Shown one piece after another: positions 4,078 to 42,522 of a DNA stretch of 42,601 bases. The notes beneath the pieces were generated by a model. That model did no database searches. It worked only from the letters and a program-made list of their open reading frames with translations, and was not told where the DNA came from. Origin of the DNA: an uncultured virus (IMG/VR IMGVR_UViG_3300032255_000005); IMG/VR virus record IMGVR_UViG_3300032255_000005, positions 1-42,601 of that record. One strand, written 5' to 3'. Positions within the stretch are counted from its first letter, which is position 1. Every line of letters begins with the position of its first letter. The translations under genes were made by a program, and so were the position numbers.

Positions 4078-4393
4078 AAAGCAACAGCCTGCCCTTTCCT
4101 TACCGAGTGCGCGTTGTCTAACAAAGCATCAAGCGGCGCAATATTTAGGTATTGGAGTGACTTTACTGACCGAAATCGGAGTACCCAATATCCGCTTAGG
4201 TCGTCGTATTGTCTACGATGTGCTTGACCTAGATCGTTGGCTCGATCAGTATAAGCATCGAGGGCGGGCCGAGGAGGATGTATGGCCCGAGAAAAAGGAC
4301 TCTATCGTCGAAAAGATTCACCCTACTGGTGGATTGATATCGTCTTATCAGACGGACGACGAGTATGCAAAAGTACTCGACTTAAAGTCTTAG
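4067..4393 (+). CDS. HTH DNA-binding protein / excisionase
   Basis: LTKHQAAQYLGIG...IRLGRRIVYDVLDLDRWL; overlaps the 5' end of the integrase. Confidence 0.8.
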   Translation: MVNKKQQPALSLPSARCLTKHQAAQYLGIGVTLLTEIGVPNIRLGRRIVYDVLDLDRWLDQYKHRGRAEEDVWPEKKDSIVEKIHPTGGLISSYQTDDEYAKVLDLKS

Positions 4394-5331
4394 CAGATGC
4401 TACAGAGTATCTGATCAACCTCAAGCAAAAGGCATATGACGATGCCCGTACGGGAATAAAACGTAATAAGACATGGCGAGAAGCAGTGGTACGGTATTCA
4501 CAAGAAAACCGTGATAAAAAATCACTAAGGGCTGATCTTGATAATTTACGCAAACTTGATCCGTATTTGGGCGATAAAATGTTAGAGCAGATCTGTATGG
4601 ATTTGCTTTGGCCGTTTATCCATCACCGCCGAGAAGTGGACGCGGTTCAACCTGCTACCATTAATCGTGCATTGGAAGTGGTTCGTCGTATCTTGCATTT
4701 AGCGCGTGATGAGTGGAATTGGTTATCACGGTTTCCCCGCATAAAAATGCTACGGGAACCTAAACGCCGCGTTCGCTTTATTACACGTGAAGAGGCCGAT
4801 AGATTGCTTGAGGCACTACCTGCGCATTTGCATGCAGTTGTGCAATTTGCGTTAAGCACCGGTTGTAGAATGTCGGAAATTTTACAACTGGATTGGCAAC
4901 GTGTTGATTTTGATCGTCGTGTTGCATGGCTCGATCCGGGCACAACGAAAAATGGGGAAGGACGCGGTATTCCACTAAACAAGGAAGCCACCCTCGCCCT
5001 TCGAAGTGTACAAGGACAGCATGCAAAATGGTGTTTTACCTTCAAAGGTAAGCCCATGAAGGCAATTGGATCATCATGGAAACGTGTACTCGAAAAGGTC
5101 GGGATTGAAAACTTTCGTTTTCATGACTGTCGTCATACATGGGCAAGTTGGCATGTAATGAACGGCACGAACCTGCAAGAGTTAATGGAACTCGGTGGCT
5201 GGAAGTCGTATGAGATGGTTCTAAGATACGCCCATCTTGCCCCTGAACACCTTGCACAAGCCGCTTCAAGAATTGAGCGAAAATGGGACGCTATTAGCGT
5301 TGGGAATGACTCTACGATTTCCCTACGCTAA
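4282..5331 (+). CDS. int: Tyrosine recombinase (integrase) of the small element
   Basis: TGCRMSEI, TTKNG, RFHDCRHTWASW, LGGW, RYAHL; adjacent to att. Confidence 0.95.
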   Translation: MAREKGLYRRKDSPYWWIDIVLSDGRRVCKSTRLKVLADATEYLINLKQKAYDDARTGIKRNKTWREAVVRYSQENRDKKSLRADLDNLRKLDPYLGDKMLEQICMDLLWPFIHHRREVDAVQPATINRALEVVRRILHLARDEWNWLSRFPRIKMLREPKRRVRFITREEADRLLEALPAHLHAVVQFALSTGCRMSEILQLDWQRVDFDRRVAWLDPGTTKNGEGRGIPLNKEATLALRSVQGQHAKWCFTFKGKPMKAIGSSWKRVLEKVGIENFRFHDCRHTWASWHVMNGTNLQELMELGGWKSYEMVLRYAHLAPEHLAQAASRIERKWDAISVGNDSTISLR

Positions 5332-5374: not shown

Positions 5375-5419
5375 TGGTGCGCCTGGCACGATTCGAACGT
5401 GCGACCGCTCGGTTCGTAG
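5375..5419 (-). repeat. att core copy 2, junction between the small element and the prophage
   Basis: 45-bp direct repeat of the tRNA-Arg 3' half. Confidence 0.95.
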
Positions 5420-9736: not shown

Positions 9737-10080
9737 TACATTGCCCCTTGAACTGTGGTTATATGGTTTTGTACTTCTATTTCTGTTAGCCCTAACTTAA
9801 TCATTTGTGCATTTATGTTTTCAACAAAACTAAATTGGTGCCGTTCATCATTGTTTGCACCCTGATTTTCAAGTACCCGAAAATCAGGCTCAACGCCGTC
9901 TGGTGTTTCTGATGAAGTTAGAATACGATCAAACACATAATGCTTTGTGTTTAGTAAATTGTTTAAAAACAAAAGTCCTTTTGTCATTTTTTCGGGTGTC
10001 GCAGAGGGCGTACCGATGTATACCATTAGCTGCTCAACGTCCTTTTTTGTTGCGATATGTTTAGGGAATCCTTTCATCAT
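9736..10080 (-). CDS. Phage tail-region hypothetical protein
   Basis: 114 aa, translationally coupled to both neighbours. Confidence 0.7.
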   Translation of the reverse strand: MMKGFPKHIATKKDVEQLMVYIGTPSATPEKMTKGLLFLNNLLNTKHYVFDRILTSSETPDGVEPDFRVLENQGANNDERHQFSFVENINAQMIKLGLTEIEVQNHITTVQGAM

Positions 10081-13000
10081 TATGTACCTGCCGCCTCATA
10101 TTTGAATTCGTCCGGGCTTGATAAACCAACATCAGCTCCCGTTTTGTCCTCCACCCGCACATCGAACCCATTAACATCTTCATTTGTTTTAATCGCATAC
10201 AAAGAAGTACTGCTAATAATTTGAGGATTAACAAAAGGCGGAAGATGGAATTGTTTCGCATAATTAAAACGAGAGCCGCCAATTGCAACCGTTAGGCCGC
10301 TCGCTCTTTCTTTGCGTTCAAGCAGATCGATTGTTGGGGAAAACTTTAAAAGAGCAGGTAAATAACCTTGTTCGTTAGGAAAGCATTTAACGCGAAACAT
10401 AATATGGCGCATGTCAATATCGCCAAATGTCCACGGCTCAAATAAAATTAATTCACCATTATCATTTACTGTTGTTACCGGCTCAGTGATTGAACCGCGA
10501 CTAATTATTTTTGTCACTGGCTCAGCGATTGAACCGCGACTAATAATAGAGTCCGCGCCTCTGTGATACTCGCCTTCTTTACGTGATGCTTTTTCAAGCG
10601 AAACATTTATTGCGTCGCCGCTTGCCCCGTAACTTAACGTGCCCCGAGCATTAATCGACGTTACCGGGTCGGTAATTGAGCCCGCCTTATTGATTTTAGT
10701 GACTGGCTCAGTGATTGATCCTCGAACAATTTTCTTTGTTACGTTAGAAAGTGATGCTGATATATTTGCCCGTACGCGGACGATGTCGTTAAAACCTAAG
10801 TCATACTCGGTTGTTGTATATACAGCTTCATCAGTCGCGGTGGGGATTAATGCGTTTGCTTGAAGAGCAAAACCTTTACGTTGACCTAACCACGCTGGAT
10901 GCTCTGCGTTGTTATAAATAAAGTCGTAGTTGGTTGTTACCGTTAAATCATACGCCGCGGCTTTTACTGAAAAACGCCCGCCGTTATCACGCTCTTTAAT
11001 AAAAAACGTGTACGCACCAGGGGGAATAGCCGAGCTGGTTAACTCTGTTCCTTTCGCGGCTTTAGTTAAATGTTGCGCGCTGCTGTAGTCAGCATTGCCC
11101 AGTGCTGCGTAACGAATCTCAAAACCACCCGAGTCTGCTATTTGCGTGTTATTCCATTTAAAAACAACCTGCTCACCATTTTGTGTTGCTAAAAAACCGG
11201 TAACATTTGGTGGCGGTTCTTCTTTACCAATAACGGGATGGTTTAATTCAGTAAGCCATTCGGAGGTGTTTCTTACGCTGTCGCTTGCGCGTACTCTTAC
11301 GTCATAAACCTCACCGGCATAAACCGGCCACACATACGACTCTGTTTCACCAATAACATCTGCTTGATTTATCCAAACAGTATCAGAAGACTTTTTGTAC
11401 TGAACCTCGTAACCAGCAACCCTTACATCGCCGCTTTCAACCCAGCTCAATTTTATTCTTGGTAGTATTGTTCCGTCGTCATTAGCAAATAACGTCGAGG
11501 TTCCGCTGATCATACTTAATGAAGCGGGCACTGGAATAATGTTTGCGTCAGCATCTTCTTCGGGTGCTTCTGCGCCGATAACAAACGAAACTCTTGAACC
11601 GCCTTTGTAGCCGGACAAATCAACATTAGCCGCCCCAACGCCTAAATAATAAGGGTACCAATTAGAAGCAAAGCTGGTCTGAGGGTAATTTTTTAAAAAC
11701 ACCGCCGGTGATGGGGTGCGGCTTGAACCGTTTATTGGCGTGTTGCCGTATTTGCTAATAATGTTATTTAGCTCAGGATAAGTCTGGCTTGCACCATCTA
11801 TCGCAAAATAAACCGCGCCTGGGGCGCCGCCAGCACCACCGCCTGCATGATTAGGGGTGTTTGTAACTGAACTTGATGAGCTACCATAGCTTTCGCTGTA
11901 ACTCGCGTTTCCGTGAAACGTACCCGCTTCGCCGTCTGCACCAGAAAGGTTGATGCTACCAGAAACCCCAAAGCTCGCACCACGGGACACAACAAACAAA
12001 CCGGCACCACCCGCACCACCGGCACCGCCCATCCAGTTTGACCAACCGTGATAGACCCACGCGCCGTATTTAAAACTAATATTGCCACCGCTTGAGCCAG
12101 ACGTGCCGCGCATGTCTGCAGGAATACCCTTTAACGTATTGTTATTATAATTTAGCGTTAAGTTAGGAACGGTTGTAAATTGACCGTCTACACGATTACC
12201 CGCTATCGCTTTAAGATAAGCATTGTCGGTACTGTTGTCGTGACGTTCGCCGCCCATTGATACAGTAGGGCCAATAAAACCTGCCACCCCCGCATTATAA
12301 GAGCGCGAATATAAATCTGAGGTGTATGCACCCTGAGTGGTGTACGGGCTAAATTGATTAACAGACTTTAAGTCAGCACCGCCGGCATGACCTGCACCAA
12401 CGCCGAGAATATTCCCGTTATTTGTAAAGTGACCCTTAACCCTTAGTTGAACATTATCTGTAATAGATAAATTAACGGCTGAGTCATTAACCAAATCACC
12501 ATCATAAAAATAAATAGAGGTCGAGGCATCGTTTAAATTATTGCCACCCGTTAACGCGCAGGATGCTTTAATATGGCCTACGCCGCTTATTACCTCGAAG
12601 TCAGTCGCAGCATTGTATCCACCGCCAACATACGTTGCCAGATTCTTGCCTTCGCTTGTATACCACGCATCATTAATAACACTGGCTGCAGTTGTTGATG
12701 CCAGCTCGCCCGCTTCTTTTGCAGAGCCAAACAAGCGAAATGTAACCGTTCCATCTATCCAATTAATCGCAACGTGCTGAACTTCAAACGATCTATCTAA
12801 TGATGCGCCAGTATAATAGTCCCGAATGTTTTCATGCTTAACCCGAACAACATCGCCAACCTCAACAATGTTTGTAGAGAGCAAACATGTGACCGACAAC
12901 CGGACGGGGGGATCTGAATACCGGTCACGAAAAGCGTTAAACCGTTCACCTAATGTTTCTGTGCTGTGGCGATTGCCGTACAACCCCCTAAATTTAAAGC

Positions 13001-33634: not shown

Positions 33635-33856
33635 TCATGCTGCGCCCTGTTCAGACTGCAAGTAAATATCCGGGCGTATTTCGTGAAGCTGGACTTCATT
33701 ATTAGTCGATTGGCTGATTTTTTGAGCCAACAAAGCCCCAGCCTTGCGATGACCGTATGCAACTTGAGACAAATAGGCATAATTAGTACCCGCCTCTTCC
33801 GCCACCCTTTTAGCTGTGGCCGTGCCGTATGTTTCAATGTATTTTTTTAGATTCAT
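33635..33856 (-). CDS. cro: Cro-like repressor (YdaS-like)
   Basis: MNLKKYIE...VAEEAGTNYAYLSQVAYGHR...EIRPDIY; divergent from the repressor; start re-assigned from the ORF track. Confidence 0.85.
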   Translation of the reverse strand: MNLKKYIETYGTATAKRVAEEAGTNYAYLSQVAYGHRKAGALLAQKISQSTNNEVQLHEIRPDIYLQSEQGAA

Positions 33857-33866
33857 GAACCAATAA

Positions 33867-33929
33867 TAGCAAAATGCTAAACTAATGCAATAGCTTTTTG
33901 CTAATAGTGTAAATAATAGCAATTTGCTA
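33867..33929. promoter_or_regulatory. OR-like operator triplet TAGC-N5-GCTA
   Basis: TAGCAAAATGCTA (33867), TAGCTTTTTGCTA (33891), TAGCAATTTGCTA (33917) between cro and cI. Confidence 0.85.
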
Positions 33930-33931
33930 CG

Positions 33932-34423
33932 ATGGAGCCTATGGAAACGAAAGATATTCGACGAATAAACCTGGTTGAGCTGCTTAAAAATTATGACAGC
34001 AAGCAAGCCTTTGCCGACTCTGTTGATATGGCACCGGCTCACGTTAGCCAGATAATCAGCGAATACAGGTCAATGGGCAGCATTATCGCCAGAAGAATCG
34101 AGGAAAAAGCAGGCTTACCCGCCGGCTATATGGACGTTAATCACAGCCAATTAACATTCGGCGTAAACGAAGAACGGCCGCTAGCATACACTCCAGACCC
34201 AGAAAGCCTATCCGAAGAAAAAGCTTTTGAGTTCGTGGACGAATTTCAGCATCAGCTTGATATTAAGCTGACCCCAAAGGATAAAATGGAGCTTTTTAGG
34301 CGAATGAAAGAGCGCTATTTAAGGCAGCTAGAAGAAGGACAAGGCGTCCCCAACACAGAGAACAAAATGAAAGCCGAAGTTATCGACTTTTTAGACATAT
34401 CAAAACAGATGAAAAACCGATAA
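33932..34423 (+). CDS. CI-like repressor (HTH, no S24 peptidase domain)
   Basis: IRRINL...KQAFADSVDMAPAHVSQI...IARRIEEKAGLPAGYMD. Confidence 0.82.
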   Translation: MEPMETKDIRRINLVELLKNYDSKQAFADSVDMAPAHVSQIISEYRSMGSIIARRIEEKAGLPAGYMDVNHSQLTFGVNEERPLAYTPDPESLSEEKAFEFVDEFQHQLDIKLTPKDKMELFRRMKERYLRQLEEGQGVPNTENKMKAEVIDFLDISKQMKNR

Positions 34424-34427
34424 ACAA

Positions 34428-35315
34428 CTATAAAGAGTTTACCCAGACCTCTTCACTGATTATTGAAACGCCCCTTCCGCTTTCTTTTAGTTCTTGTGCC
34501 TTTTCAATTTTTCGACCAAAAGAAGTATTTGCCCAGTCCCGACTGGATAAAGCGCCAACAACCAAATAATCCAGCTTAACTACAACCGTTTTGCAAGTAT
34601 TACCGCCCCGCTCTGTCGTTAGGTTCTCGCACGTTTTACGCGAGCCCTTAATAAACTTACCGGTAAAGCAAAACACCTTTCCATCAAACTCAACGCAATC
34701 CGGCTCATCCATCCCTAAGCGAACAGACATCCCAGAAACCTCACCGTGTTCGGTCACATGCCCACCAATCAAGTCAACAAGCACCCCATGCAAATGATTT
34801 CGTTCTTCGTCAGTAATAATGCCGTCTTTTAGAATATTATGAACGTTTGAAACAACTACACTAAGAGGCCATCTATCTTTCCATTCACCACATCGACGAA
34901 GCCAGCGAGAAAGGTTTTTAATTTCTTTATCATTCAGCACGTGATCAGCCGTCATACCTCGCGCAATACCAGTTAACCGAGTAATCGCATCATCAGCAGA
35001 ATATAAGCCATCATCAGACTCATTTTCTAACACTATATTAAGCAACCCCAACAGATCTTCCAGCTCATCAACAGAAACCCTGCCATCCGCCAAAATATCC
35101 GTAGTTAAATCCAACAAATCAAAAAAATCCGGATCACTCTTTAACCATAGCTCATTACTTCGTAGCCAGGCATCCAATAAAGCCGCCTCAATCTCATTCA
35201 AAGCCTTGTCCGCAGTAACGCCCTGACAAAACCCCATTAACTCAGCAAGCGCCTTTTCTTTATTGTTATGAAAATGTATCCCAAAGCCCGGTTGGCCATC
35301 TGCATCCTTATTCAT
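34428..35315 (-). CDS. BRCT-domain protein
   Basis: C-terminal FCFTGKF..GSRK.CE...GG...LDYLVVG...W...FGRKIEKA...IISEEVW; duplicated helical N-terminal repeats. Confidence 0.82.
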   Translation of the reverse strand: MNKDADGQPGFGIHFHNNKEKALAELMGFCQGVTADKALNEIEAALLDAWLRSNELWLKSDPDFFDLLDLTTDILADGRVSVDELEDLLGLLNIVLENESDDGLYSADDAITRLTGIARGMTADHVLNDKEIKNLSRWLRRCGEWKDRWPLSVVVSNVHNILKDGIITDEERNHLHGVLVDLIGGHVTEHGEVSGMSVRLGMDEPDCVEFDGKVFCFTGKFIKGSRKTCENLTTERGGNTCKTVVVKLDYLVVGALSSRDWANTSFGRKIEKAQELKESGRGVSIISEEVWVNSL

Positions 35316-35371
35316 ACACCCTCCTTATATATGGAATTTAAAAGTATACATAAAGAAAAAAAATAAAAACT

Positions 35372-35425
35372 TAGCAAAATGCTATTGACGGCTTTAGCAA
35401 ACTGCACTACATTAGCATTATGCTA
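35372..35425 (+). promoter_or_regulatory. PL-like promoter with OL-like operator triplet
   Basis: TTGACG (35385)-N17-TACATT (35408) overlapped by TAGCAAAATGCTA (35372), TAGCAAACTGCAC (35395), TAGCATTATGCTA (35413). Confidence 0.85.
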
Positions 35426-35674
35426 TTGCAGAATGTAAACAACAAAGGGAAAAACATTATGAGCAACATGATCACTTTACACCCTAGCGTAACCATAAAT
35501 CAGGCGCTCCAAATGCTACGCGACTACCCCGCAATAACCCGTATTGACGGCAACGACCGCCAGCGATTCCTAGTCACTCGCAGCGAACAAGGCAACATGG
35601 GGTTTGTGAAAGTCCCAAAACGCAAAGACCAGTTAAGCGGCCTACCCTGCAACCCAGTAGAAAGCAAAAACTAA
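35420..35674 (+). CDS. Hypothetical early protein; start likely 35459
   Basis: First ORF after PL; AAGGG RBS. Confidence 0.6.
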   Translation: MLLQNVNNKGKNIMSNMITLHPSVTINQALQMLRDYPAITRIDGNDRQRFLVTRSEQGNMGFVKVPKRKDQLSGLPCNPVESKN

Positions 35675-35985
35675 TGGCTGCGCACTTGAATACTTTAACC
35701 ATGCAAGAAGCCGCCAAGATCGTCGGCATCGGCTCAAAAAAATTATTTAAGTTACTCAGAGAGAAAAAAGTCCTAAATCAAAACAACCTGCCCTATCAAC
35801 GATACATCGATAACGGTTACTTAAAAGTAGATTCAGGCAGCTGGAACCACCCCGAAGTAGGCGAAAAGCTATACGCAAAAACCATCGTCACCGTAAAAGG
35901 GGTTGAGTGGATAGAAAATTTAATAAAACAACAACACCAGGTAATTAAAAATGAGCAGCCAACAGAACATAGAACAGCGATATAA
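35674..35985 (+). CDS. Phage antirepressor KilAC-domain protein
   Basis: AAKIVGIGSKKLFKLLRE...NLPYQRYIDNGY...TIVTVKGVEWI. Confidence 0.88.
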   Translation: MAAHLNTLTMQEAAKIVGIGSKKLFKLLREKKVLNQNNLPYQRYIDNGYLKVDSGSWNHPEVGEKLYAKTIVTVKGVEWIENLIKQQHQVIKNEQPTEHRTAI

Positions 35986-36127
35986 AGAAGCAATGTACCA
36001 CCTAAGTTGCCTAACCGTTTTTGTTGAACAAGGCTCGCCTGACGATTTTCCGTGCACACTAAAACAAACAAAAAAGTTTTTAGAAAAAGAAAACACACTC
36101 AAACAAGAAGCAAGCAATGCTAAATAA
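35951..36127 (+). CDS. Small hypothetical protein (58 aa)
   Basis: MSSQQNIEQRYKEAMYHLSCL...; fills the operon gap, below the ORF-track cutoff. Confidence 0.5.
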   Translation: MSSQQNIEQRYKEAMYHLSCLTVFVEQGSPDDFPCTLKQTKKFLEKENTLKQEASNAK

Positions 36128-36374
36128 CTTACTGATTATCGCAATAAGTAACGAAGCTCAATTATGGGGTATGGCAAGCAGCCACGCCCACCTGCAAAGC
36201 ATGTGGGAAAAAAGAATTAAAAAAGAAACACATCAGCTTACAGACAAGCAAGCTAAAGCCGTTGCAATTGCACAAGCTGGCGCATTTGCGCTAGCGATGC
36301 AGTTGGTTACTGTAAACATGATGCGTGATATGACTTTGATGTTGAAAATATATTCAGACATTAAAGGCAATTAA
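36117..36374 (+). CDS. Hypothetical protein; stop codon lies in the outermost attC core
   Basis: 85-aa ORF ending in AATTAAC. Confidence 0.55.
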   Translation: MLNNLLIIAISNEAQLWGMASSHAHLQSMWEKRIKKETHQLTDKQAKAVAIAQAGAFALAMQLVTVNMMRDMTLMLKIYSDIKGN

Positions 36375-36435
36375 CGCCCATGTTCACGGGAAAACGAGCG
36401 TTAGCGAGTGCATCCCGTGGAATTAATTGTTAGGG
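36369..36435 (-). repeat. attC: attC site (cassette 6)
   Basis: Minus: CCCTAAC-AATTA-ATTCCACG...CGTGAAC-ATGGGC-GTTAATT, extra C in L''. Confidence 0.9.
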
Positions 36436-36467
36436 TTTTGTGGTGTAAATAAATTAACGAGGGCTAT

Positions 36468-36764
36468 ATGAAGATGATGTCTTATGAGAAATACGCGGTC
36501 TTTACAGAATACCTCAATTACATGAAGGAGAACCCGTCTGTCACCCCAGCCAGACGCGAAATTAACGGGGCGATGTATATATGGGTTGAGGATGTATCCG
36601 GGCGTTCTCGCGGATTTTGGCTATCTGAGCCGAAAACAATAGAACCAACAAAAACCGAAATCAACGATGAAGAGGTGAGAGAGCTTCTGTTAGGTTCAAT
36701 GTCGCGGCTCCCTACTTTCGATGAGTTCGCGAAGCAGGTCAAAGATGATACTGACGACCCCTAA
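36468..36764 (+). CDS. Cassette 6 ORF, hypothetical
   Basis: GAGG RBS; stop codon inside CCCTAAC. Confidence 0.8.
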   Translation: MKMMSYEKYAVFTEYLNYMKENPSVTPARREINGAMYIWVEDVSGRSRGFWLSEPKTIEPTKTEINDEEVRELLLGSMSRLPTFDEFAKQVKDDTDDP

Positions 36765-36843
36765 CGGCGCTGTTAATTTGCGCCACAGATTGACCAGAGA
36801 AAAGAGCGGCGCTTACGGCGTCAAATTGAATGAATTGTTATGT
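36759..36843 (-). repeat. attC: attC site (cassette 5)
   Basis: Minus: ACATAAC-AATTC-ATTCAATT-TGACGCC...GGCGCA-AATTAAC-AGCGCC-GTTAGGG. Confidence 0.92.
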
Positions 36844-36863
36844 TTTTAACTGAGGAATGAAAA

Positions 36864-37049
36864 GTGGAAATTAGATTGAATGACGATGAAATTCGAGAAG
36901 CACTCACAGAAGCCTTAAATAGAAAGGTTGATTATGCCGTAACGGCTAAAGCTGAAGAATGCTGGTTTGAAGTTAAGGCTGGTGTAATTAATGGTGAAGA
37001 TGTCGATGATATTCACGATGTCCAGTTTTGCTTTAAGACAGACACATAA
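36864..37049 (+). CDS. Cassette 5 ORF, hypothetical acidic protein
   Basis: GAGG RBS; stop codon inside ACATAAC. Confidence 0.8.
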   Translation: MEIRLNDDEIREALTEALNRKVDYAVTAKAEECWFEVKAGVINGEDVDDIHDVQFCFKTDT

Positions 37050-37104
37050 CGATTAAGTTAAAAAGCGCCGCTTTTTGGCGTCCTTTTTGAACGCCTTGTT
37101 ATAA
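37044..37104 (-). repeat. attC: attC site (cassette 4)
   Basis: Minus: TTATAAC-AAGGC-GTTCAAAA...TTTTAAC-TTAATC-GTTATGT. Confidence 0.92.
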
Positions 37105-37124
37105 GGCGTTACCACGGAGGCAAG

Positions 37125-37331
37125 ATGAATATTGATGTAACAATAGAGCGAATTGACAACGGCTACATAGTTACCGGAAACGACTCAACAAAAAACAAAA
37201 ACTATTTTGTAAGCCTAGAAAAATTTGCTGAGTCACAAATTATTGAAGATTTACGAGAGCTAGACGCCGCGATACGCGAACACGAAAAACCAAATGAGCC
37301 GTTTACTTTCAAGATAACGAGTGACTTATAA
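37125..37331 (+). CDS. Cassette 4 ORF, hypothetical
   Basis: GGAGG RBS; IERIDNGYIV motif; stop codon inside TTATAAC. Confidence 0.82.
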   Translation: MNIDVTIERIDNGYIVTGNDSTKNKNYFVSLEKFAESQIIEDLRELDAAIREHEKPNEPFTFKITSDL

Positions 37332-37390
37332 CCGTTAAGTTAAAGGGTTGCGCCGCTTTTGCGCAATCCATTTTAAACGCCTTGTTATGC
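37326..37390 (-). repeat. attC: attC site (cassette 3)
   Basis: Minus: GCATAAC-AAGGC-GTTTAAAA-TGGATTGCGC...GCGCAACC-CTTTAAC-TTAACG-GTTATAA. Confidence 0.92.
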
Positions 37391-37408
37391 AAGGCATGGA
37401 GATAAAGA

Positions 37409-37723
37409 ATGACAGGCGACGAAATTAAAAAAGAAACCATGTGTATGGGCAACCTCAGCGACATTGAAGTGGCCAGCAAAGTTAGAATGTTAATGCGCAC
37501 AGATTTAGATCATGAGCCTGTTTGTCTGGCTGGCCGCGACCGGATTATGTATTTAAGTCAGCAACTAGAAAAGTGGCAACGCCTAGCTAAAGAACGCGGC
37601 GAGTTTATTATTAATGGAGAAGATTTAGGATACATAACAACGCCAAATTCTGAGAATGATAAGGCATACCATATTTTCCTTCGTTGCCAGTTGCTTGATG
37701 AACGTGCAGCACAAGAGGCATAA
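37409..37723 (+). CDS. Cassette 3 ORF, hypothetical
   Basis: GGAG RBS; stop codon inside GCATAAC. Confidence 0.82.
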   Translation: MTGDEIKKETMCMGNLSDIEVASKVRMLMRTDLDHEPVCLAGRDRIMYLSQQLEKWQRLAKERGEFIINGEDLGYITTPNSENDKAYHIFLRCQLLDERAAQEA

Positions 37724-37805
37724 CGACCAAGTAAGCGGATTTTAAAAGCAAGTGAAACGCCGCTTTTAAAAGTCCGAGCGTAGCGGCTTAACTGCCTTGT
37801 TATAT
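37718..37805 (-). repeat. attC: attC site (cassette 2)
   Basis: Minus: ATATAAC-AAGGC-AGTTAAGC...GGACTTTTAAAAGC...GCTTTTAAAATCC-GCTTACT-TGGTC-GTTATGC. Confidence 0.88.
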
Positions 37806-37828
37806 TTTTTATTAATTATAGGTGACTT

Positions 37829-38011
37829 ATGAGTAGTGATGAGCCAGAAACACCGCAATATGTAATTAACGAATGGTTGAAGCAGTGTACTTGCTGCCCT
37901 GAATGCGGACAGATGCGCCCATGTAACGGCGTGATGGCTGGGGGTATGTGTGACAGCGCATGTGATTGTGATGATGACGACCCTGATTACATGTTCAACG
38001 AGATACTTTGA
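37829..38011 (+). CDS. Cassette 2 ORF, small Cys-rich protein
   Basis: CTCCPEC...C...C...CDC; AGGTG RBS. Confidence 0.8.
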   Translation: MSSDEPETPQYVINEWLKQCTCCPECGQMRPCNGVMAGGMCDSACDCDDDDPDYMFNEIL

Positions 38012-38012
38012 A

Positions 38013-38085
38013 ATATAACGGCGCTGCTCAGTTGTTGCGACTGAGCGTAGCGAAAGAGCAATCAACCTGGAGAGAATTGTTATGT
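38013..38085 (-). repeat. attC: attC site (cassette 1)
   Basis: Minus: ACATAAC-AATTC-TCTCCAGG-TTGATTGC...GCAACAA-CTGAGC-AGCGCC-GTTATAT. Confidence 0.88.
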
Positions 38086-38342
38086 GTAATTGCAGAACGA
38101 TGAGAAGAACTTGGGAGGAAACACAAAACGGAAGGTTTGCACCAAGCAACCATGCTCCCGCTTGCGAGGATTATGAAACTAAAAGATACATTTGCCTGTT
38201 CGATGATGACGGCAGAAGTTTTATTGATACCGTTGAAAACCAATATTCTTTTATGTCGCACGATGATGGTAATTGGCGGCAATCGGATATTTATATAACA
38301 GAAGATCAATTTAATAAGCTGCAAGAGTACGTAGGCTTGTAA
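38082..38342 (+). CDS. Cassette 1 ORF, hypothetical
   Basis: ATG overlaps the attC core (gttATGt); GGAG RBS lies inside the attC arm. Confidence 0.8.
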   Translation: MCNCRTMRRTWEETQNGRFAPSNHAPACEDYETKRYICLFDDDGRSFIDTVENQYSFMSHDDGNWRQSDIYITEDQFNKLQEYVGL

Positions 38343-38343
38343 C

Positions 38344-38394
38344 ACATAACAGGTATTAGAAAGCCGCTTGGCTTCCTATCACAGCAGGATAAAA
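38344..38394 (-). other. attI: Putative attI site (core GTTATGT at 38344-38350)
   Basis: Lone GTT core with no attC palindrome, complementary to the R'' of the nearest attC, directly 5' of intI on the opposite strand. Confidence 0.75.
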
Positions 38395-39360
38395 ATGATG
38401 AATGGTAAACAACTCATTGAAAAGATACATGAAGCTTGTCGTATTCGGCATTTATCCCGCCGTACAGAGGAAGCCTATATTTATTGGATTCAAGATTATG
38501 CGCGTTTCTGTATTCAAAATCCATGGCCGGAAACTGAAGATAAAATTAATGCATTCCTTTCTCGCTTAGCGACAAAAAGAAACGTTGCTGCAGCAACTCA
38601 AAATGTTGCGCTCAACGCTGTTGTATTTTTATATCGCGATGTAAAAAAAGAACCTTTGGGTGACTTCTCTCAGTTCAAGCGAGCTAAAAAACCACATCGT
38701 TTACCTGTCGTGCTTTCAAAAAATGAAACGTCAATCTTACTATCGCACACCAAAGGTACTCATTGGTTAATTGCGAGCATATTATATGGATCTGGCTTAA
38801 GGCTAATGGAAGTTTTACGCTTAAGAATTAAAGATATTGATTTTGAAAGACAAACAATTACTGTCCGCGCAGGCAAAGGTGATAAAGATCGTGCAGTAAT
38901 GTTGCCGTCATCATTAACTGAACCTTTGCAACAACAAATAGAGCTGGCAAAAAGAAACCATAACAATGACTTAGCCAGTGGCTATGGTTCGGTTTATCTG
39001 CCTGACGCACTTGCAAAAAAATATAAAAATGCACCTTATGAGTTTAAATGGCAGTTTTTATTTCAAGCAAGTCGCGTAGGTCCAGTTCCAGAAACAGGAG
39101 AAGTTCGCCGACACCACATACACCACACAGCGGTTCAAAAAGCCATACGGCATGCAGTCGTAACATCTGGCATAGATAAAAAAATATCATGTCACACATT
39201 ACGACACAGCTTCGCAACTCACTTATTAGAGAGCGGCACAGATATACGGACAATACAACAACTGCTCGGACACAAAGATTTAAGTACAACGATGATTTAT
39301 ACCCACGTGGCAATTACCGGCGCATGCGGCGTTATTAGCCCTTTAGAGGCTTTAGCATGA
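38368..39360 (+). CDS. intI: Integron integrase; likely start 38395
   Basis: TEEAYIYWI, VAAATQNVALNAVVFLY, LPVVLS, YGSGLRLME, GKGDKDR, the IntI-specific insertion VYLPDALAKKY...WQFLF...RRHH, HTLRHSFATHLL, LLGH, TMIYTHV. Confidence 0.96.
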   Translation: MASYHSRIKMMNGKQLIEKIHEACRIRHLSRRTEEAYIYWIQDYARFCIQNPWPETEDKINAFLSRLATKRNVAAATQNVALNAVVFLYRDVKKEPLGDFSQFKRAKKPHRLPVVLSKNETSILLSHTKGTHWLIASILYGSGLRLMEVLRLRIKDIDFERQTITVRAGKGDKDRAVMLPSSLTEPLQQQIELAKRNHNNDLASGYGSVYLPDALAKKYKNAPYEFKWQFLFQASRVGPVPETGEVRRHHIHHTAVQKAIRHAVVTSGIDKKISCHTLRHSFATHLLESGTDIRTIQQLLGHKDLSTTMIYTHVAITGACGVISPLEALA

Positions 39361-39395
39361 GAAAAAGCTTCATAAGAGTAGGCGCACCGATATAA

Positions 39396-39551
39396 ATGAT
39401 GAAAAAAATAAATATTGCTTTTGTCGTTTTTGTCTTGTGGACATTATTCCCAGTAATCGCTTTATGGCTAATGCTAACGCACCCAGGCAAGTGCGCTTTA
39501 ATCTGGAAAAAAGAACTTGAAAATTCATGGTGGTCTAAAGATGAAAAGTAA
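39396..39551 (+). CDS. Small membrane protein (51 aa)
   Basis: MMKKINIAFVVFVLWTLFPVIALWLML...; overlaps the methylase start; below the ORF-track cutoff. Confidence 0.45.
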   Translation: MMKKINIAFVVFVLWTLFPVIALWLMLTHPGKCALIWKKELENSWWSKDEK

Positions 39552-41034
39552 AGATGTAAAACCATTCAGCTGGAAAAGATCACCACAATTACGGTTATCA
39601 CTCGAAGACGAAATCAATATAGACAATTTCGCCGGTGGTGGTGGCGCAAGCATGGGGTTTGAAATAGCAACAGGGCATTCGATTGATGTCGCAATCAATC
39701 ACGACCCAGAAGCCATTGCAATGCACGAAGCAAACCATCCAACAACAAAACATTATATGTCAGACGTTTTTGAGGTTGACCCTATCGAAGTATGCAAAGG
39801 CAAACCCGTTGGCCTTGCCTGGTTTAGCCCAGACTGCAAACACTTTTCCAAAGCAAAAGGCGGTAAACCGGTAGATAAAAAAGTAAGAGGCTTGGCCAGA
39901 GTCGCAATAAAATGGGCAGAACTTGTAAAGCCCAGAATCATTTTTTTAGAAAACGTCGAAGAGTTTCAAGACTGGGGTCCACTGCTTGAAAATAATAAAC
40001 CCTGCCCCATTCGCAAAGGATTATCGTTTCGACGCTTTGTACGCGACTTTGAAAAACTAGGCTACCAGGTTGAATGGCGCGAACTACGCGCATGCGATTA
40101 TGGCGCCCCAACAATACGCAAAAGATTATTCTTAATTGCTCGATGTGACGGACAACCCATCACATGGCCAGAAGCCACACACGGAAAAGAAAAAGGCCTA
40201 AAGCCCTACAACACCGCAGCGGACTGCATTGATTGGACTACTCCAATTCACTCAATATTTTTAACTAAAGAAGACGTTAAAAATAAAAAACTTAAAATAA
40301 AAAGACCGCTTGCAGAAAAAACATTAACAAGAATAGCAAAAGGTATGCAGCGTTACGTGATCAACTCAGATAAACCTTTTATCGTTCCATCATTCATTAC
40401 CGAACACGCAAACGGCTCAAACCAACGCAACATGCCTACAGATGAACCGCTCAGAACAATTTGCGCGCAAGTAAAAGGGGGCCACTTTGCCTTAGTATCC
40501 GCTTTTCTCGCAAAACATTACAGCGGCGTAGTCGGTCATGGTGTAAAACAGCCAATAGGAACCATTACATCAATAGATCATCATTCACTGGTAAGCAGTC
40601 ACTTGCTACAACTAAGAAATAACCAGTTCGGGCAAGACGTAAACAAACCCATTCCAACATTAACCGCCGGCGGTACCCATATTGGTGAAATACGCGCATT
40701 CTTAGTTAAGTATTACGGAACAGATCAAGACCCACGACTTAGTGAGCCAATGCACACAGTCACATCCAGAGATCGTTTCGGCTTAGTAACAGTCGAAGGC
40801 CAAGATTATCAAATTGCCGATATTGGGATGAGGATGTTAGCGCCACGCGAACTTTATCGCGCTCAAGGCTTTCCAGACGAATACATTATTAACCCAACAT
40901 ACAACGGCAAACCCTTAACAAAAGTCGCTCAAGTACGAATGTGCGGCAACAGCGTTAGCCCAGTTGTCGCCGCAGCCCTTATTAAAGCGAACCTAGTCAA
41001 CGCCAATAATGTTATTAGACGAGCGGAGTGTTGA
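39517..41034 (+). CDS. DNA (cytosine-5)-methyltransferase, orphan; start likely 39541
   Basis: FAGGGG, SPDCKHFS, LENVEEF, YGAPTIRKRLF, RAQGFP, CGNSV. Confidence 0.95.
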   Translation: MKIHGGLKMKSKDVKPFSWKRSPQLRLSLEDEINIDNFAGGGGASMGFEIATGHSIDVAINHDPEAIAMHEANHPTTKHYMSDVFEVDPIEVCKGKPVGLAWFSPDCKHFSKAKGGKPVDKKVRGLARVAIKWAELVKPRIIFLENVEEFQDWGPLLENNKPCPIRKGLSFRRFVRDFEKLGYQVEWRELRACDYGAPTIRKRLFLIARCDGQPITWPEATHGKEKGLKPYNTAADCIDWTTPIHSIFLTKEDVKNKKLKIKRPLAEKTLTRIAKGMQRYVINSDKPFIVPSFITEHANGSNQRNMPTDEPLRTICAQVKGGHFALVSAFLAKHYSGVVGHGVKQPIGTITSIDHHSLVSSHLLQLRNNQFGQDVNKPIPTLTAGGTHIGEIRAFLVKYYGTDQDPRLSEPMHTVTSRDRFGLVTVEGQDYQIADIGMRMLAPRELYRAQGFPDEYIINPTYNGKPLTKVAQVRMCGNSVSPVVAAALIKANLVNANNVIRRAEC

Positions 41035-41266
41035 AATAGCGCCAATGCAAAAACTCAACCTAACATTAGCCGAAATAAAGGATATTACCGGTAAAACTCA
41101 TCGCCAAAAACAAGCGTTAGTGTTGGCCGCAATGAGCATTCCCTTTAAAATACGCCCAGATGGGACTATCCTTGTTAGCAGAGAAGCATACAACACATCG
41201 ATGGGCTGTAATCACGACCAACCAGAAAAAGTGATTGAGCCAGACTTTGGGATGATGGCAAACTAA
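41009..41266 (+). CDS. Excisionase-like protein (DUF4224-type)
   Basis: LTLAEIKDITG...QALVL..MSIPFKIRPDG; directly before the integrase. Confidence 0.8.
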   Translation: MLLDERSVEIAPMQKLNLTLAEIKDITGKTHRQKQALVLAAMSIPFKIRPDGTILVSREAYNTSMGCNHDQPEKVIEPDFGMMAN

Positions 41267-42342
41267 TGGCACCTAAAAACCGCAACAAAGAAAACAAGCC
41301 GTTACCAGAACGCTGGAGATACCGCTACGGTGCTTATTATTATCGTGTTCCACCAGGATTAGAATCTGAATGGGACAATAAAAAAGAATTTAAGCTTGGT
41401 CGAACTATATCCGAAGCCTACAAAGAATGGTCAAAACGCATTCAGCAAAACGCCGAAGATGTGCATACAATGCAGCAAGCCTTCGATCGCTATTGTTTAG
41501 AAGTTATCCCAAACAAAGCGCACAACACCCAACAATCAAATTTAATTAGCATAAAAAAATTACGTCCCGTTTTTGCAAACATAGAACCCGATAAAATATT
41601 ACCCAAGTACGCTTATAAATATTACGATATAGCCGCGAAAACACGCGGTAAAACCGCCGCAAAGCACGACATACAAGTGCTGCGCCACACACTAACCATG
41701 TGCGTTAAATGGGGCGTGATAGACGTCAATCCACTTATGGGGCAGATCCGACTAGAAGGCTCAGCCTCACGCAAACGATTAGTCGAAGACTGGGAAATAC
41801 ATGAATGCTTAAACTTAAAACCGAAAATAACATCTAAAGCGGTTAACTTAATAAAACTCTACATTGAACTAAAACTAATGACAGGTTTTAGCAGAATAGA
41901 TTTATTAAAATTAAAGTTAAGTGACTTAAAAGAAGACGGCATTCATAGCCAGCGACAAAAAACAAAAAATACTACGGGCAAGCGGTTAATCATTACCTGG
42001 ACAAATGAACTCAAAGAATTAACCGATGAAATTTTAAAGCTGCCTCCACGCCGCGTAGGAAACACTTATCTATTCGTTACCCGGCAAGGCAAGCCCTACT
42101 TCAATGAAAAAACAATGAAGTGCAATGCATTTGATTCAATCTGGCAGCGCTACATGGACAGAGTGATCGAACTAACCAAAGTAACAGAACGTTTCCACGA
42201 ACACGATCTCAGAGCCAAAGTTGCAAGCGACAGCGCAACACTAAGCGAAGCCAGCGAACGTTTAGGTCACGCCTCAACCGAAACGACCCAGCGATTCTAC
42301 CGAAGAAAACCAACCGAAATAACACCACTAAAAAGAAAATAG
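41266..42342 (+). CDS. int: Prophage tyrosine integrase
   Basis: TGFSRIDL, QKT, FHEHDLRAK, LGH, RFYRRK; adjacent to att/tRNA. Confidence 0.93.
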   Translation: MAPKNRNKENKPLPERWRYRYGAYYYRVPPGLESEWDNKKEFKLGRTISEAYKEWSKRIQQNAEDVHTMQQAFDRYCLEVIPNKAHNTQQSNLISIKKLRPVFANIEPDKILPKYAYKYYDIAAKTRGKTAAKHDIQVLRHTLTMCVKWGVIDVNPLMGQIRLEGSASRKRLVEDWEIHECLNLKPKITSKAVNLIKLYIELKLMTGFSRIDLLKLKLSDLKEDGIHSQRQKTKNTTGKRLIITWTNELKELTDEILKLPPRRVGNTYLFVTRQGKPYFNEKTMKCNAFDSIWQRYMDRVIELTKVTERFHEHDLRAKVASDSATLSEASERLGHASTETTQRFYRRKPTEITPLKRK

Positions 42343-42445: not shown

Positions 42446-42522
42446 TGGTGCGCCTGGCACGATTCGAACGTGCGGCCGCTCGGTTCGTAGCCGAGTACTC
42501 TATCCAGCTGAGCTACAGGCGC
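42446..42522 (-). tRNA. tRNA-Arg (anticodon ACG)
   Basis: GCGCCTG acceptor, TAGCTCAGCTGGATAGAG D-arm, CTCGG-CTACGAA-CCGAG anticodon arm, GTTCGAATC, CCA end; 77 nt. Confidence 0.97.

Follow-up and report, generated by a model that had tools for sequence, protein, structure and literature searches.

Integrons are understood as bacterial devices, in which cassettes lacking a promoter are transcribed from Pc, located next to attI, and the integrase is under SOS control. In bacterial cassettes, to our knowledge, the gene is invariably carried by the attC top strand. The DNA analysed here is a stretch of 42,601 nt from an uncultured virus (IMG/VR IMGVR_UViG_3300032255_000005), referred to below as the window. 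It holds an integron within a prophage, and a sequence-only reading had claimed that all cassette genes are inverted and, with intI, are wired to a repressor-controlled phage promoter, PL. The question is how such an array is oriented and from where it is expressed. We consider it probable, from the arrangement of the sequence, that a temperate lambda-like phage carries a complete, apparently active integron within its early-left operon, where it would be read from PL.

Prophage frame and repressor region

A lambda-like prophage of 37 kb occupies positions ~5399-42445 of the window, with a tRNA-Arg gene as its integration target. Besides the copy at the right end, the 24-nt att repeat is present at 5375-5398 (the left prophage end) and at 81-104; host DNA may be included within the borders of IMG/VR proviruses. 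The features of this frame are as follows.

33635..33856, minus: cro-like regulator, 73 aa (phrog_35 transcriptional repressor, E 4.7e-12)
33867..33929, no strand: OR-like region with three exact TAGC-N5-GCTA operators, at 33867, 33891 and 33917
33932..34423, plus: cI-like repressor, 163 aa (phrog_5736, E 1.5e-14; N-terminal HTH regulator match)
34428..35315, minus: 295-aa gene between cI and PL (phrog_3989, E 8.7e-81)
35372..35425, plus: PL-like promoter from the promoter scan, TTGACG (35385-35390), N17, TACATT (35408-35413)
35459-35674, 35674-35985, 35951-36127 and 36117-36374, plus: four early backbone ORFs between PL and the array
39517..41034, plus: cytosine-5 DNA methyltransferase, the Dcm methylase (phrog_116, E 7.6e-102)
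41009..41266, plus: excisionase, xis (phrog_1266, E 5.1e-10)
41266..42342, plus: phage integrase, int (phrog_1, E 3.7e-29)
42446..42522, minus: tRNA-Arg (ACG) with attR, right prophage end

The cro-like regulator scored 24.9 bits against PF15943, which is under the cut-off, and profile searches of the cI-like repressor matched no Pfam family and detected no S24 peptidase domain, hence no sign of a link to SOS. The 295-aa gene weakly resembles the C-terminal part of NAD-ligase. The backbone ORF at 35674-35985 is KilAC/Ant-like (PF03374, 68.5 bits), and the methyltransferase reached 92 bits against TIGR00675, slightly under the cut-off of 100.65 bits.

The PL-like promoter had been described as covered by three operators of the kind found between cI and cro. 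Two of them are exact (35372-35384 and 35413-35425), but the middle one (35395-35407) matches on one half only. The 13-nt operators at 35372 and 33867 are identical. Exact TAGC-N5-GCTA occurs seven times in the whole window; two copies lie at PL and three between cro and cI, so that five of the seven fall in these two regions, and the promoter is overlapped by operators common to the cI/cro region. Its score is 9 of 12, from a scan that was not enriched over shuffles (12 sites versus 18.7).

IntI, attI and attC sites

Two covariance models were used for the attC sites, one built from the six window attCs as read on the plus strand (the window-derived model) and the other from 90 sites (the general model). 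The integron consists of the following features, in which the plus strand is the bottom strand of each attC.

36369..36435, plus: attC-a (R' AATTAAC, R'' GTTAGGG; window-derived model 59.4 bits on plus, general model 32.1 bits)
36468..36764, plus: c1, 98 aa (SD-like motif; homologues)
36759..36844, plus: attC-b (R' CCCTAAC, R'' GTTATGT; window-derived model 68 bits on plus versus 12 on minus)
36864..37049, plus: c2, 61 aa, GTG start (ORF call)
37044..37104, plus: attC-c (match to the window-derived model; general model 61.7 bits)
37125..37331, plus: c3, 68 aa (ORF call)
37326..37390, plus: attC-d (matches to both models)
37409..37723, plus: c4, 104 aa (27 homologues)
37718..37805, plus: attC-e (matches to both models)
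37829..38011, plus: c5, 60 aa, rich in Cys and Asp (ORF call)
38013..38085, plus: attC-f (matches to both models)
38082..38342, plus: c6, 86 aa (ORF call; SD motif in attC-f, ATG in R'')
38344..38394, minus: attI, core GTTATGT (ACATAAC/AGGTATT on plus), an R box with conserved flank before intI
38395..39360, plus: intI, integron integrase, 321 aa (TIGR02249, 423.2 bits versus a cut-off of 265)

IntI is intact and covers the TIGR02249 model end to end (positions 2-315 of 315). An alignment of 12 relatives shows no variation at its residues R136, K161, H267, R270, H293 and Y302, which we take to be the tyrosine-recombinase catalytic set R-K-H-R-H-Y. The distance between the attI core (ACATAAC, 38344-38350) and the intI ATG, given earlier as about 45 bp, was measured as 44 nt. 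The core CATAAC/AG is common to four phages, namely the window, L008, L246 and L251, and in a 44,442-nt contig of metagenome run X4 the similarity starts only at 38346, in attI. The conserved core and this homology break mark the attI core as the candidate entry point of cassettes. Further metagenome contigs have attCs in common with the window and then diverge. One contig of run X3, with a depth of 3.3 and a shorter side of just 30 nt, is without a segment of exactly 295 nt that runs from the R' box of attC-e to that of attC-f and corresponds to the cassette made up of attC-e and c5.

The general model scored the six window attCs at 32-62 bits. In their R/L helices 81.6% of cells are paired, versus 35-46% with the partners slid, and compensatory changes are found in five of eight L-box pairs. 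Folding of the attC strands, proposed earlier as a check, came out better than shuffles when unconstrained, but the margin is slight (z -0.9 to -2.3). The 3' arm of attC-b has an unpaired G and T. A terminator-like hairpin followed by a T run lies in attC-c (37057-37081) and is the sole one on the plus strand of the array.

Polarity of the attCs and orientation of the cassette ORFs

On the plus strand, all six attCs have one additional base that is left unpaired (G, G, G, A, A, G) in the 3' arm, 5 nt before GTT, and in five of them the 5' arm reads AAC and then G. The extra base, the 5-nt spacer and the AAC-G arm are bottom-strand marks in the portion of PMC2727003 drawn on here. The window-derived model gave 59-72 bits on plus versus 10-14 bits on minus for these sites. 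Its matches in other integrons share the sense strand of intI: 62 of 63 do so across 81 viral loci, 53 of 53 across 80 metagenome loci and 40 of 40 across 15 named genome loci, or 155 of 156 in total; in the viral and metagenome loci, with the window sites removed, 113 of 115 are upstream of intI. The class 1 control (L215, Citrobacter) has intI1 and its attC matches on plus, and the genes for a GNAT acetyltransferase (aac), Arr, DHFR (dfrA), AadA and a qacE-like protein on minus. Since 155 of 156 matches follow the intI-sense strand, class 1 included, the attC polarity of the window is canonical and plus is the bottom strand, as the sequence-only reading had placed it from the extra base and the spacer. 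All six attCs have the intI strand as their bottom strand and precede intI.

The six cassette ORFs, of 98, 61, 68, 104, 60 and 86 aa, are all on plus and are indeed inverted: each lies on the attC bottom strand, co-directional with intI, the Dcm methylase, xis and int. On the minus strand, the longest ORF in each of cassettes c1-c6 has 74, 33, 36, 36, 31 and 21 aa, respectively. We found 10 homologues of c1 at E<=0.001, two of them of similar size with 44-46% identity, and a copy of c4, 67% identical, is on the plus strand of L003. Stop codons had been placed in or beside R', and this is where they are found: the TAA stops of c1-c4 lie inside the R' box, the TGA of c5 is immediately 5' of it, and the TAA of c6 is 1 base before the attI core. 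The TAA of the backbone ORF 36117-36374 is inside the terminal R' box, that of attC-a. A ribosome-binding site after R'' was seen, as an SD-like motif, in five of the six cassettes, but not in c6, whose motif is within attC-f. The spacers from attC to ORF start are 17-32 nt, and the start codon of c6 is within R''.

Expression of the array

Because each cassette gene is on the bottom strand, the early genes, cassettes, intI, methylase, xis and int form one co-directional block. It is ~7 kb long and lies wholly behind the operator-flanked and operator-overlapped promoter (TTGACG-N17-TACATT at 35385-35413), in agreement with the earlier description; attI is at the array end distal to PL, which fits the claim that new cassettes land farthest from the promoter. 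A Pc-like minus-strand promoter was sought between 38087 and 39019 and gave no match, the nearest minus-strand match (9 of 12) being at 39048-39020. The LexA box motif is CTGT-N8-ACAG. No LexA box had been seen near intI, and no exact copy is present in the whole window; copies with one mismatch are at chance level (8 found versus 12 expected in the window), and one of them, at 38337-38352, overlaps the attI core.

We infer that PL takes the place of Pc and Pint, with the array silent in the lysogen and switched on at induction. The PL-like promoter would transcribe the whole block on infection or derepression; production of IntI and of the cassette proteins would be blocked in the lysogen and would coincide with that of Xis and Int. 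Such an integron would have neither Pc nor a LexA-controlled Pint, and new cassettes would enter at attI, beside intI and most distant from PL. The relatives show it to be a recurring phage-type integron, with a cassette pool oriented for read-through from phage promoters. The genes xis and int follow the array in the same orientation; if they are expressed as in lambda, transcripts from PL would have to cross it, barring an unseen internal promoter. Their distal position and the conservation of the layout in other phages add weight to PL control.

An alternative that we judge unlikely is that the architecture is real and its expression is not tied to PL. The cassettes themselves, or the last cassette/attI region, would have their own promoters, and expression of the cassette genes or of intI would then occur in the lysogen, in a moron-like way or from an undetected Pint. 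The array could be transcribed independently from a weak plus-strand promoter match at 36325-36354, the hairpin and T run of attC-c could stop transcripts, and the one-mismatch LexA-like motif overlaps attI. Chromosomal integrons are known to include cassettes that bring a promoter with them (in the parts of PMC9892861 and PMC8876359 consulted). However, the attC-to-ORF spacers of 17-32 nt and the c6 start inside R'', the finding of no plus-strand promoter match between 36355 and 38394, and the location of xis and int downstream on the same strand argue against this alternative.

Recurrence in other phages and the cassette pool

The same layout, with the conserved attI core, is present in L008, L246 and L251, and the integrases sharing it are 54-60% identical. 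In L008 the order is a repressor-like gene on plus, the early operon, a unit bounded by attCs that encodes a Dam methylase, at least three attCs, the core GCATAAC/AG, intI and then the phage integrase. L251 and L246 have plus-strand ORFs whose stop codons fall within the first 8 nt of each attC. A survey of ORF/attC orientation, as had been suggested, was done by the stop-codon signature of each cassette, with attCs called by the general model in the viral and bacterial sets and plus denoting the bottom strand. In IMG/VR contigs the 148 cassettes gave 48 plus, 25 minus, 31 both and 44 none, and the 99 cassettes of canonical arrays in bacterial genomes gave 4, 55, 4 and 36; the bottom-to-top counts are thus 48:25 against 4:55, with half of all cassettes lacking a single strand call and the counts not being independent (L031 and L033 are near-duplicates). 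For matches of the window-derived model in metagenome and genome loci, the numbers were 0 plus, 32 minus, 2 both and 22 none. In nine viral loci, six of ten plus-strand cassette ORFs are above Pfam cut-offs (RtcB with 299.8 bits, N6_N4 methylase twice, HNH_3, and PAPS_reduct twice), which is proof of the coding strand in viral loci. The DNA methylases, RtcB and HNH nuclease in the pool look like candidates for accessory or counter-defence functions.

It may tentatively be suggested that phages, temperate and other, possess an integron class of their own, with reversed cassettes and a pool mostly separate from that of bacteria, from which accessory and counter-defence genes of the early phase could be stored and shuffled. 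Bottom-strand genes may let phage promoters read via the array into intI. The store would contain DNA methylases, RtcB, nucleases and small acidic proteins, and would mirror the bacterial integrons in which defence systems against phages are kept. On this view, since transcription from PL has the bottom strand as its non-template strand, attC folding and the exchange of cassettes might also be favoured by induction.

It is very improbable that the element is an inert passenger from a bacterial chromosome, whose ORFs agree with the operon strand by coincidence or rearrangement. The borders of IMG/VR records are imprecise, and published phage integrons have been read as captured pieces of host integrons (in the sections of PMC9892861 considered), but the present one lies between PL and xis-int, within the att repeats, with its intI intact, and its layout and attI core recur with integrases as divergent as those above. 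Of 59 single calls in bacterial arrays, 55 are top-strand, and the opposite orientation would thus be expected of a captured array; an inversion is unable to flip an ORF relative to its own attC. Hardly credible is a misreading of attC polarity, by which plus would be the top strand of ordinary cassettes with intI at the far end of the array: the R boxes are palindromic, and by them alone the order ORF, xTAAC ... GTTATGT, RBS resembles a normal cassette, but the strand of the model matches elsewhere (class 1 control included), the scores of the window sites on the two strands, the lone R box with conserved flank 44 nt before intI in four phages, and the homology break at 38346 all contradict it.

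Comparison with known systems

Canonical integrons (class 1 and the sedentary chromosomal integrons of Vibrio, Pseudomonas and others) share with the window a TIGR02249-family IntI, an attI directly upstream of intI, attCs whose bottom strand coincides with the sense strand of intI, the extra L'' base with the 5-nt R''-L'' spacer, and cassettes of one ORF and one attC. Unlike them, the window has all its cassette ORFs on the bottom strand, co-directional with intI, and no detected Pc-like promoter or LexA box; transcription would have to enter at the array end far from attI, and the element is embedded in a phage operon, from PL to xis-int. In the inverted integron-integrase group (Treponema type), intI itself is flipped, according to the part of PMC4889954 consulted. 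There, too, intI and cassette genes point one way, but intI precedes the array and lies on the strand opposite to the attC bottom strand, whereas the window is canonical in attC polarity and array position and has the ORFs reversed within the cassettes. We found the Treponema-type layout in L055, L168, L170, L177, L190 and L236.

Qi et al. 2023 (PMC9892861), in the sections considered, describe integrons and CALINs in phage genomes as pieces derived from class 1 integrons or from those of host chromosomes. As in the window, integron parts are in temperate phages and methyltransferase genes are among the cassettes; reversed ORFs, a phage-promoter context and a conserved phage attI are unmentioned in its sections 3, 3.1 and 3.3. 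The lambda PL operon resembles the window in that the repressor gene reads in the same direction as PL, operators are triple at OR and OL (the middle OL of the window being a half match), and xis and int are distal, beside the att site, which in the window is in a tRNA gene. The window has an integron and a Dcm methylase where lambda has non-essential b-region-side genes.

Implications

The preferred reading, an integron read from PL, implies that the recombination machinery has been kept and that the expression logic appears to be reversed and placed under the phage repressor. Many viral contigs have this design too, and their cargo includes methylases and RtcB. If this is confirmed, phages have an integron-based exchange of early genes, and it is the transcription of the host element, not the mechanism of recombination, that sets cassette orientation. 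Surveys assuming top-strand ORFs would then mis-annotate phage cassettes, and how cassettes arise, and with which polarity, would become a testable question.

The prophage and its setting

The window is an IMG/VR virus record from a microbial-mat metagenome, with an uncultured host. In it a 24-nt stretch of tRNA-Arg recurs exactly, in three copies altogether, where no such repeat would be expected by chance. From the copies at 5375-5398 and 81-104, we conclude that two elements sit in tandem within one tRNA-Arg gene, which serves as their attachment site: a 5.3-kb island, which may be a satellite or defence island, and a 37-kb prophage. The relevant features are as follows.

Features of the window around the integron (coordinates; strand or direction; description)
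81-104, 5375-5398 and 42446-42469; exact copies of the 24-nt tRNA-Arg piece
379-1764, 1816-2664 and 2707-4077; ORFs of the 5.3-kb island
4282-5331; the island's own integrase
about 5399-42445; 37-kb prophage, lambda-like, reversed
33635-33856; cro-like gene, from which structural and replication genes run leftward
33932-34423; rightward; cI-like regulator
34428-35315; minus; 295-aa gene between cI and PL, matching phrog_3989, with a C-terminal end resembling that of an NAD-dependent ligase
35385-35413; plus; PL-like promoter, TTGACG-N17-TACATT, matching at only 9 of 12 positions
42446-42522; tRNA-Arg gene

Every gene of the rightward block at 35459-42342 reads in the same direction, with excisionase, phage integrase and the attachment site at its distal end, and the integron lies inside this block. 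The operator region may double as a divergent promoter for the 295-aa gene. A blastn search of positions 35300-39400 against 50,697 GenBank phage records, a set that may lack near relatives, gave no match.

The integrase and the attC sites

The ORF at 38395-39360 (intI) aligns with the integron-integrase model TIGR02249 along its full length and scores 423.2 bits, where the cut-off is 265; six catalytic-type residues are invariant in 12 relatives. The closest relatives, P0002-P0005, have 77-89% identity. Scans with two relatives, P0003 and P0008, returned only relatives of at most 61% identity, and identity over the full length was at most 53% among the matches listed from genome contigs.

Between small ORFs there are six imperfect palindromes (attC-a to attC-f), with xxxTAAC at one end and GTTAxxx at the other. 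When a structure with 7 pairs in the R boxes and 8 in the L boxes is imposed, pairing occurs in 81.6% of cells, compared with 35-46% when the partners are slid, and five L-box pairs show compensatory changes. Unconstrained DNA folding gave unimpressive z values of -0.9 to -2.3 and did not recover the fold of sites a, b and f, which exposes the weakness of energy-only arguments for attC sites. A GAGCG-N(0-2)-AGCG motif was found in three of the six sites, within the variable loop region (36396-36406, 37776-37785, 38043-38052), and in two attC-like sites of the viral locus L008 (5554-5564, 7589-7598); the window holds 5 matches, against 0.64 expected.

In PMC2727003, extrahelical bases are by definition carried by the R''-L'' arm, and on the bottom strand a conserved G comes after the AAC of R'. 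On the plus strand of the window, G follows AAC in five of the six sites, and the 3' arm of each site has an unpaired base (G, G, G, A, A, G) 5 nt upstream of GTT; the plus strand therefore reads as the bottom strand. For an independent strand test, we used a covariance model built from the six sites read on plus (R1) and calibrated it on loci with intI relatives, all set with intI on plus. Its matches fell on the intI strand in 62 of 63 cases among 81 viral loci, 53 of 53 among 80 metagenome loci and 40 of 40 among 15 named genome loci, and 113 of 115 matches in the viral and metagenome loci were upstream of intI. The class 1 integron of Citrobacter among the named loci (L215) agrees: its attC matches are on plus, and its minus strand carries all five of the GNAT acetyltransferase, Arr, DHFR, AadA and qacE-like genes. 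For the sites of the window itself, R1 gives 59-72 bits on plus and 10-14 bits on minus. As a result, both the polarity of these attCs, claimed to be canonical relative to intI, and the position of the array are ordinary.

Cassette ORFs are reversed relative to their attC sites

In all six cassettes (c1-c6) the spacer is filled by a plus-strand ORF of 60-104 aa, compared with 21-74 aa for the longest minus-strand ORFs, and each plus ORF has a Shine-Dalgarno-like motif. Four stop at a TAA within the next R' box, as does the backbone ORF 36117-36374; c5 stops directly before its R' box and c6 one base before the attI core. The sequence-only reading, with all cassette ORFs inverted and their stop codons in or beside R', was therefore accurate. 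Since inversion of an array cannot turn an ORF relative to its own attC, the reversal is a property of each cassette. None of the six ORFs matched Pfam or PHROGs; c4 has 27 homologues, one of them 67% identical and on the plus strand of viral locus L003, and c1 has two of similar size.

Orientation was then surveyed, as had been proposed, in other phage intI loci with a broader attC model built from 90 hits (R2), for which 205 of 208 matches in the window and 81 viral loci were on the intI strand, the other three all being in L055. A cassette was called plus if a plus ORF covered at least 60% of it and ended in the next R' box, and minus if a minus ORF covered at least 60% and ended beside R''.

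Cassette strand calls by stop-codon position
Loci (model)	Plus only	Minus only	Both	None	Cassettes
Viral loci (R2)	48	25	31	44	148
Canonical arrays, 80 bacterial genome loci (R2)	4	55	4	36	99
Metagenome and genome loci (R1)	0	32	2	22	56

The window's cassettes were called plus in five of five cases, and 15 of the 25 viral minus calls came from two loci, L019 and L060, in neither of which tblastn found a phage gene. Comparison of 48:25 with 4:55 by Fisher test gave p = 6e-13; since the set includes near-duplicates (L031 and L033), cassettes are not independent and no single strand call was obtained for half of those surveyed, the direction of the contrast, not the p-value, is the result. The stop-codon signature and Pfam checks were used in place of two dropped rules: the longest-ORF rule gave ambiguous results where loci are GC-rich and left 72 of 144 cassettes without a call, and the GC3-based rule left 83 of 144 without one and did not work for L019, a clearly canonical locus. 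In the direct Pfam check of the coding strand, six of ten plus-strand cassette ORFs from nine viral loci passed curated cut-offs, namely RtcB (299.8 bits), two N6/N4 DNA methylases, HNH_3 and two PAPS-reductase-like proteins; one of the rest had a radical-SAM match below cut-off and three had no match.

The layout recurs in other viral contigs

The layout of the window is that of a family, not a single case. In L008 (45% G+C) the whole plan is repeated: after a plus-strand repressor-like gene comes a rightward operon, then an attC-flanked unit with a Dam methylase, three more attCs whose plus-strand ORFs stop in R' boxes, an attI core, intI and a phage integrase. L251 with four attCs and L246 with two also have the stop-in-R' pattern. 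The window has a lone R box, ACATAAC (38344-38350), with the intI ATG 44 nt further on, in accordance with the gap of about 45 bp claimed before. L008, L246 and L251 have the core and flank in common with it (CATAAC|AG, then a TAT-rich stretch), 40-72 nt before intI, and their integrases are only 54-60% identical to the window's IntI clade.

According to tblastn, a phage integrase co-directional with intI lies a short way downstream of it in L009, L010, L049, L017, L006, L026, L041 and L059, and terL lies directly downstream in L246 (region 10001-12854), L018, L027/L029, L043 and L016. Phage integrons thus recur in a second position besides that beside xis-int, with intI directly before the large terminase gene (terL) and in the same orientation. 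Three loci with an intI relative and co-directional upstream genes (L003, L030, L047) gave no attC match even with filters off and may be cassette-less forms; L003 still has the c4 homologue.

Variation in microbial-mat metagenomes

We compared contigs of four microbial-mat DNA runs, of which X1 may be the source sample, with positions 35000-39800, and excluded from evidence the parts of the window that lack coverage in runs X3 and X4. Read-depth peaks at attC-b, -d and -e came from other contigs that carry these sites followed by unlike sequence, which in at least two cases opens, immediately after R'', with a plus-strand Shine-Dalgarno motif and an ATG. In one X3 contig, 37719 is joined to 38015, so that 295 nt, exactly one cassette (attC-e plus c5), are gone, with 6 shared letters at the joint; at a depth of 3.3 and with a shorter side of 30 nt, this is weak evidence. 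A 44,442-nt X4 contig resembles the window only from 38346, in the attI core, into intI, with 18 differences in 157 nt, and differs upstream. These observations are compatible with cassette exchange at the predicted crossover points.

Comparison with known integrons

Two defining features of the canonical integron, the cassette promoter Pc and top-strand ORFs, were looked for and neither was found in the window, where a promoter scan gave no minus-strand match at the expected place of Pc. The Treponema-type inverted-integrase arrangement, as presented in PMC4889954, is not the window's layout either; in our control set that layout consists of minus-strand arrays downstream of intI. Such downstream arrays, opposite to the intI strand, were seen in L055, L168, L170, L177, L190 and L236, and with one weak hit in L187; for the loci of this group, the labels of the source MAGs include Acidobacteriota, Eisenbacteria and Actinomycetes. 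Qi et al. 2023 (PMC9892861) report three complete integrons and one In0 element in 10,705 phage genomes, read phage integrons as captured host pieces and mention methylases in phage CALINs; sections 3, 3.1 and 3.3 of that paper describe neither reversed cassettes nor a phage-promoter context. We found no earlier description of reversed-ORF phage integrons in a literature search that covered few subscription journals.

Promoter signals and proposed transcription

The sequence-only reading placed on PL three operators matching those between cI and cro. Two of them stand: an exact TAGC-N5-GCTA copy abuts the -35 and another overlaps the -10, while the middle copy, in the spacer, matches by half. 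The cro-cI interval has three exact copies, and the copy at 35372 is identical to that at 33867. At one mismatch the motif is not enriched in the whole window (13 found, 14.9 expected); the informative count is that of exact copies, of which five of seven cluster in the PL and cro-cI regions. The window has no exact LexA box, in line with the earlier claim. A one-mismatch copy of CTGT-N8-ACAG, TTGTAACACATAACAG, lies at 38337-38352; such copies are at chance frequency, but its position, overlapping the attI core, is notable.

We propose that the rightward block is one PL-type transcription unit. Gene gaps are short (-35 to 105 nt), the larger ones being the attCs themselves, no plus-strand promoter match lies between 36355 and 38394, and xis and int, on the same strand, stand at the end of the block. 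Against this reading we count the attC-c hairpin with a T run after it (37057-37081), the presence of a weak promoter match at 36325-36354 and the match of PL at only 9 of 12 positions. We also count against it that no S24 peptidase domain was detected in the cI-like repressor, and that a search of RNA runs for the sequence listed none; among its own genes the operon has one for an Ant-like KilAC protein.

The analysis establishes the parts, polarity and order of the window's integron. The observation behind the sequence-only reading is confirmed, and the structural half of its interpretation is supported and generalised. PL-type expression of the block is plausible as judged from sequence. 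Compared with the canonical integron, the machinery is the same and the expression logic is different. Under the PL-type unit, the block would be off in the lysogen and on after infection or derepression, and xis and int, by analogy with lambda, would be expressed by read-through from PL. As foreseen, new cassettes would enter at attI, beside intI and farthest from PL, which follows from geometry alone.
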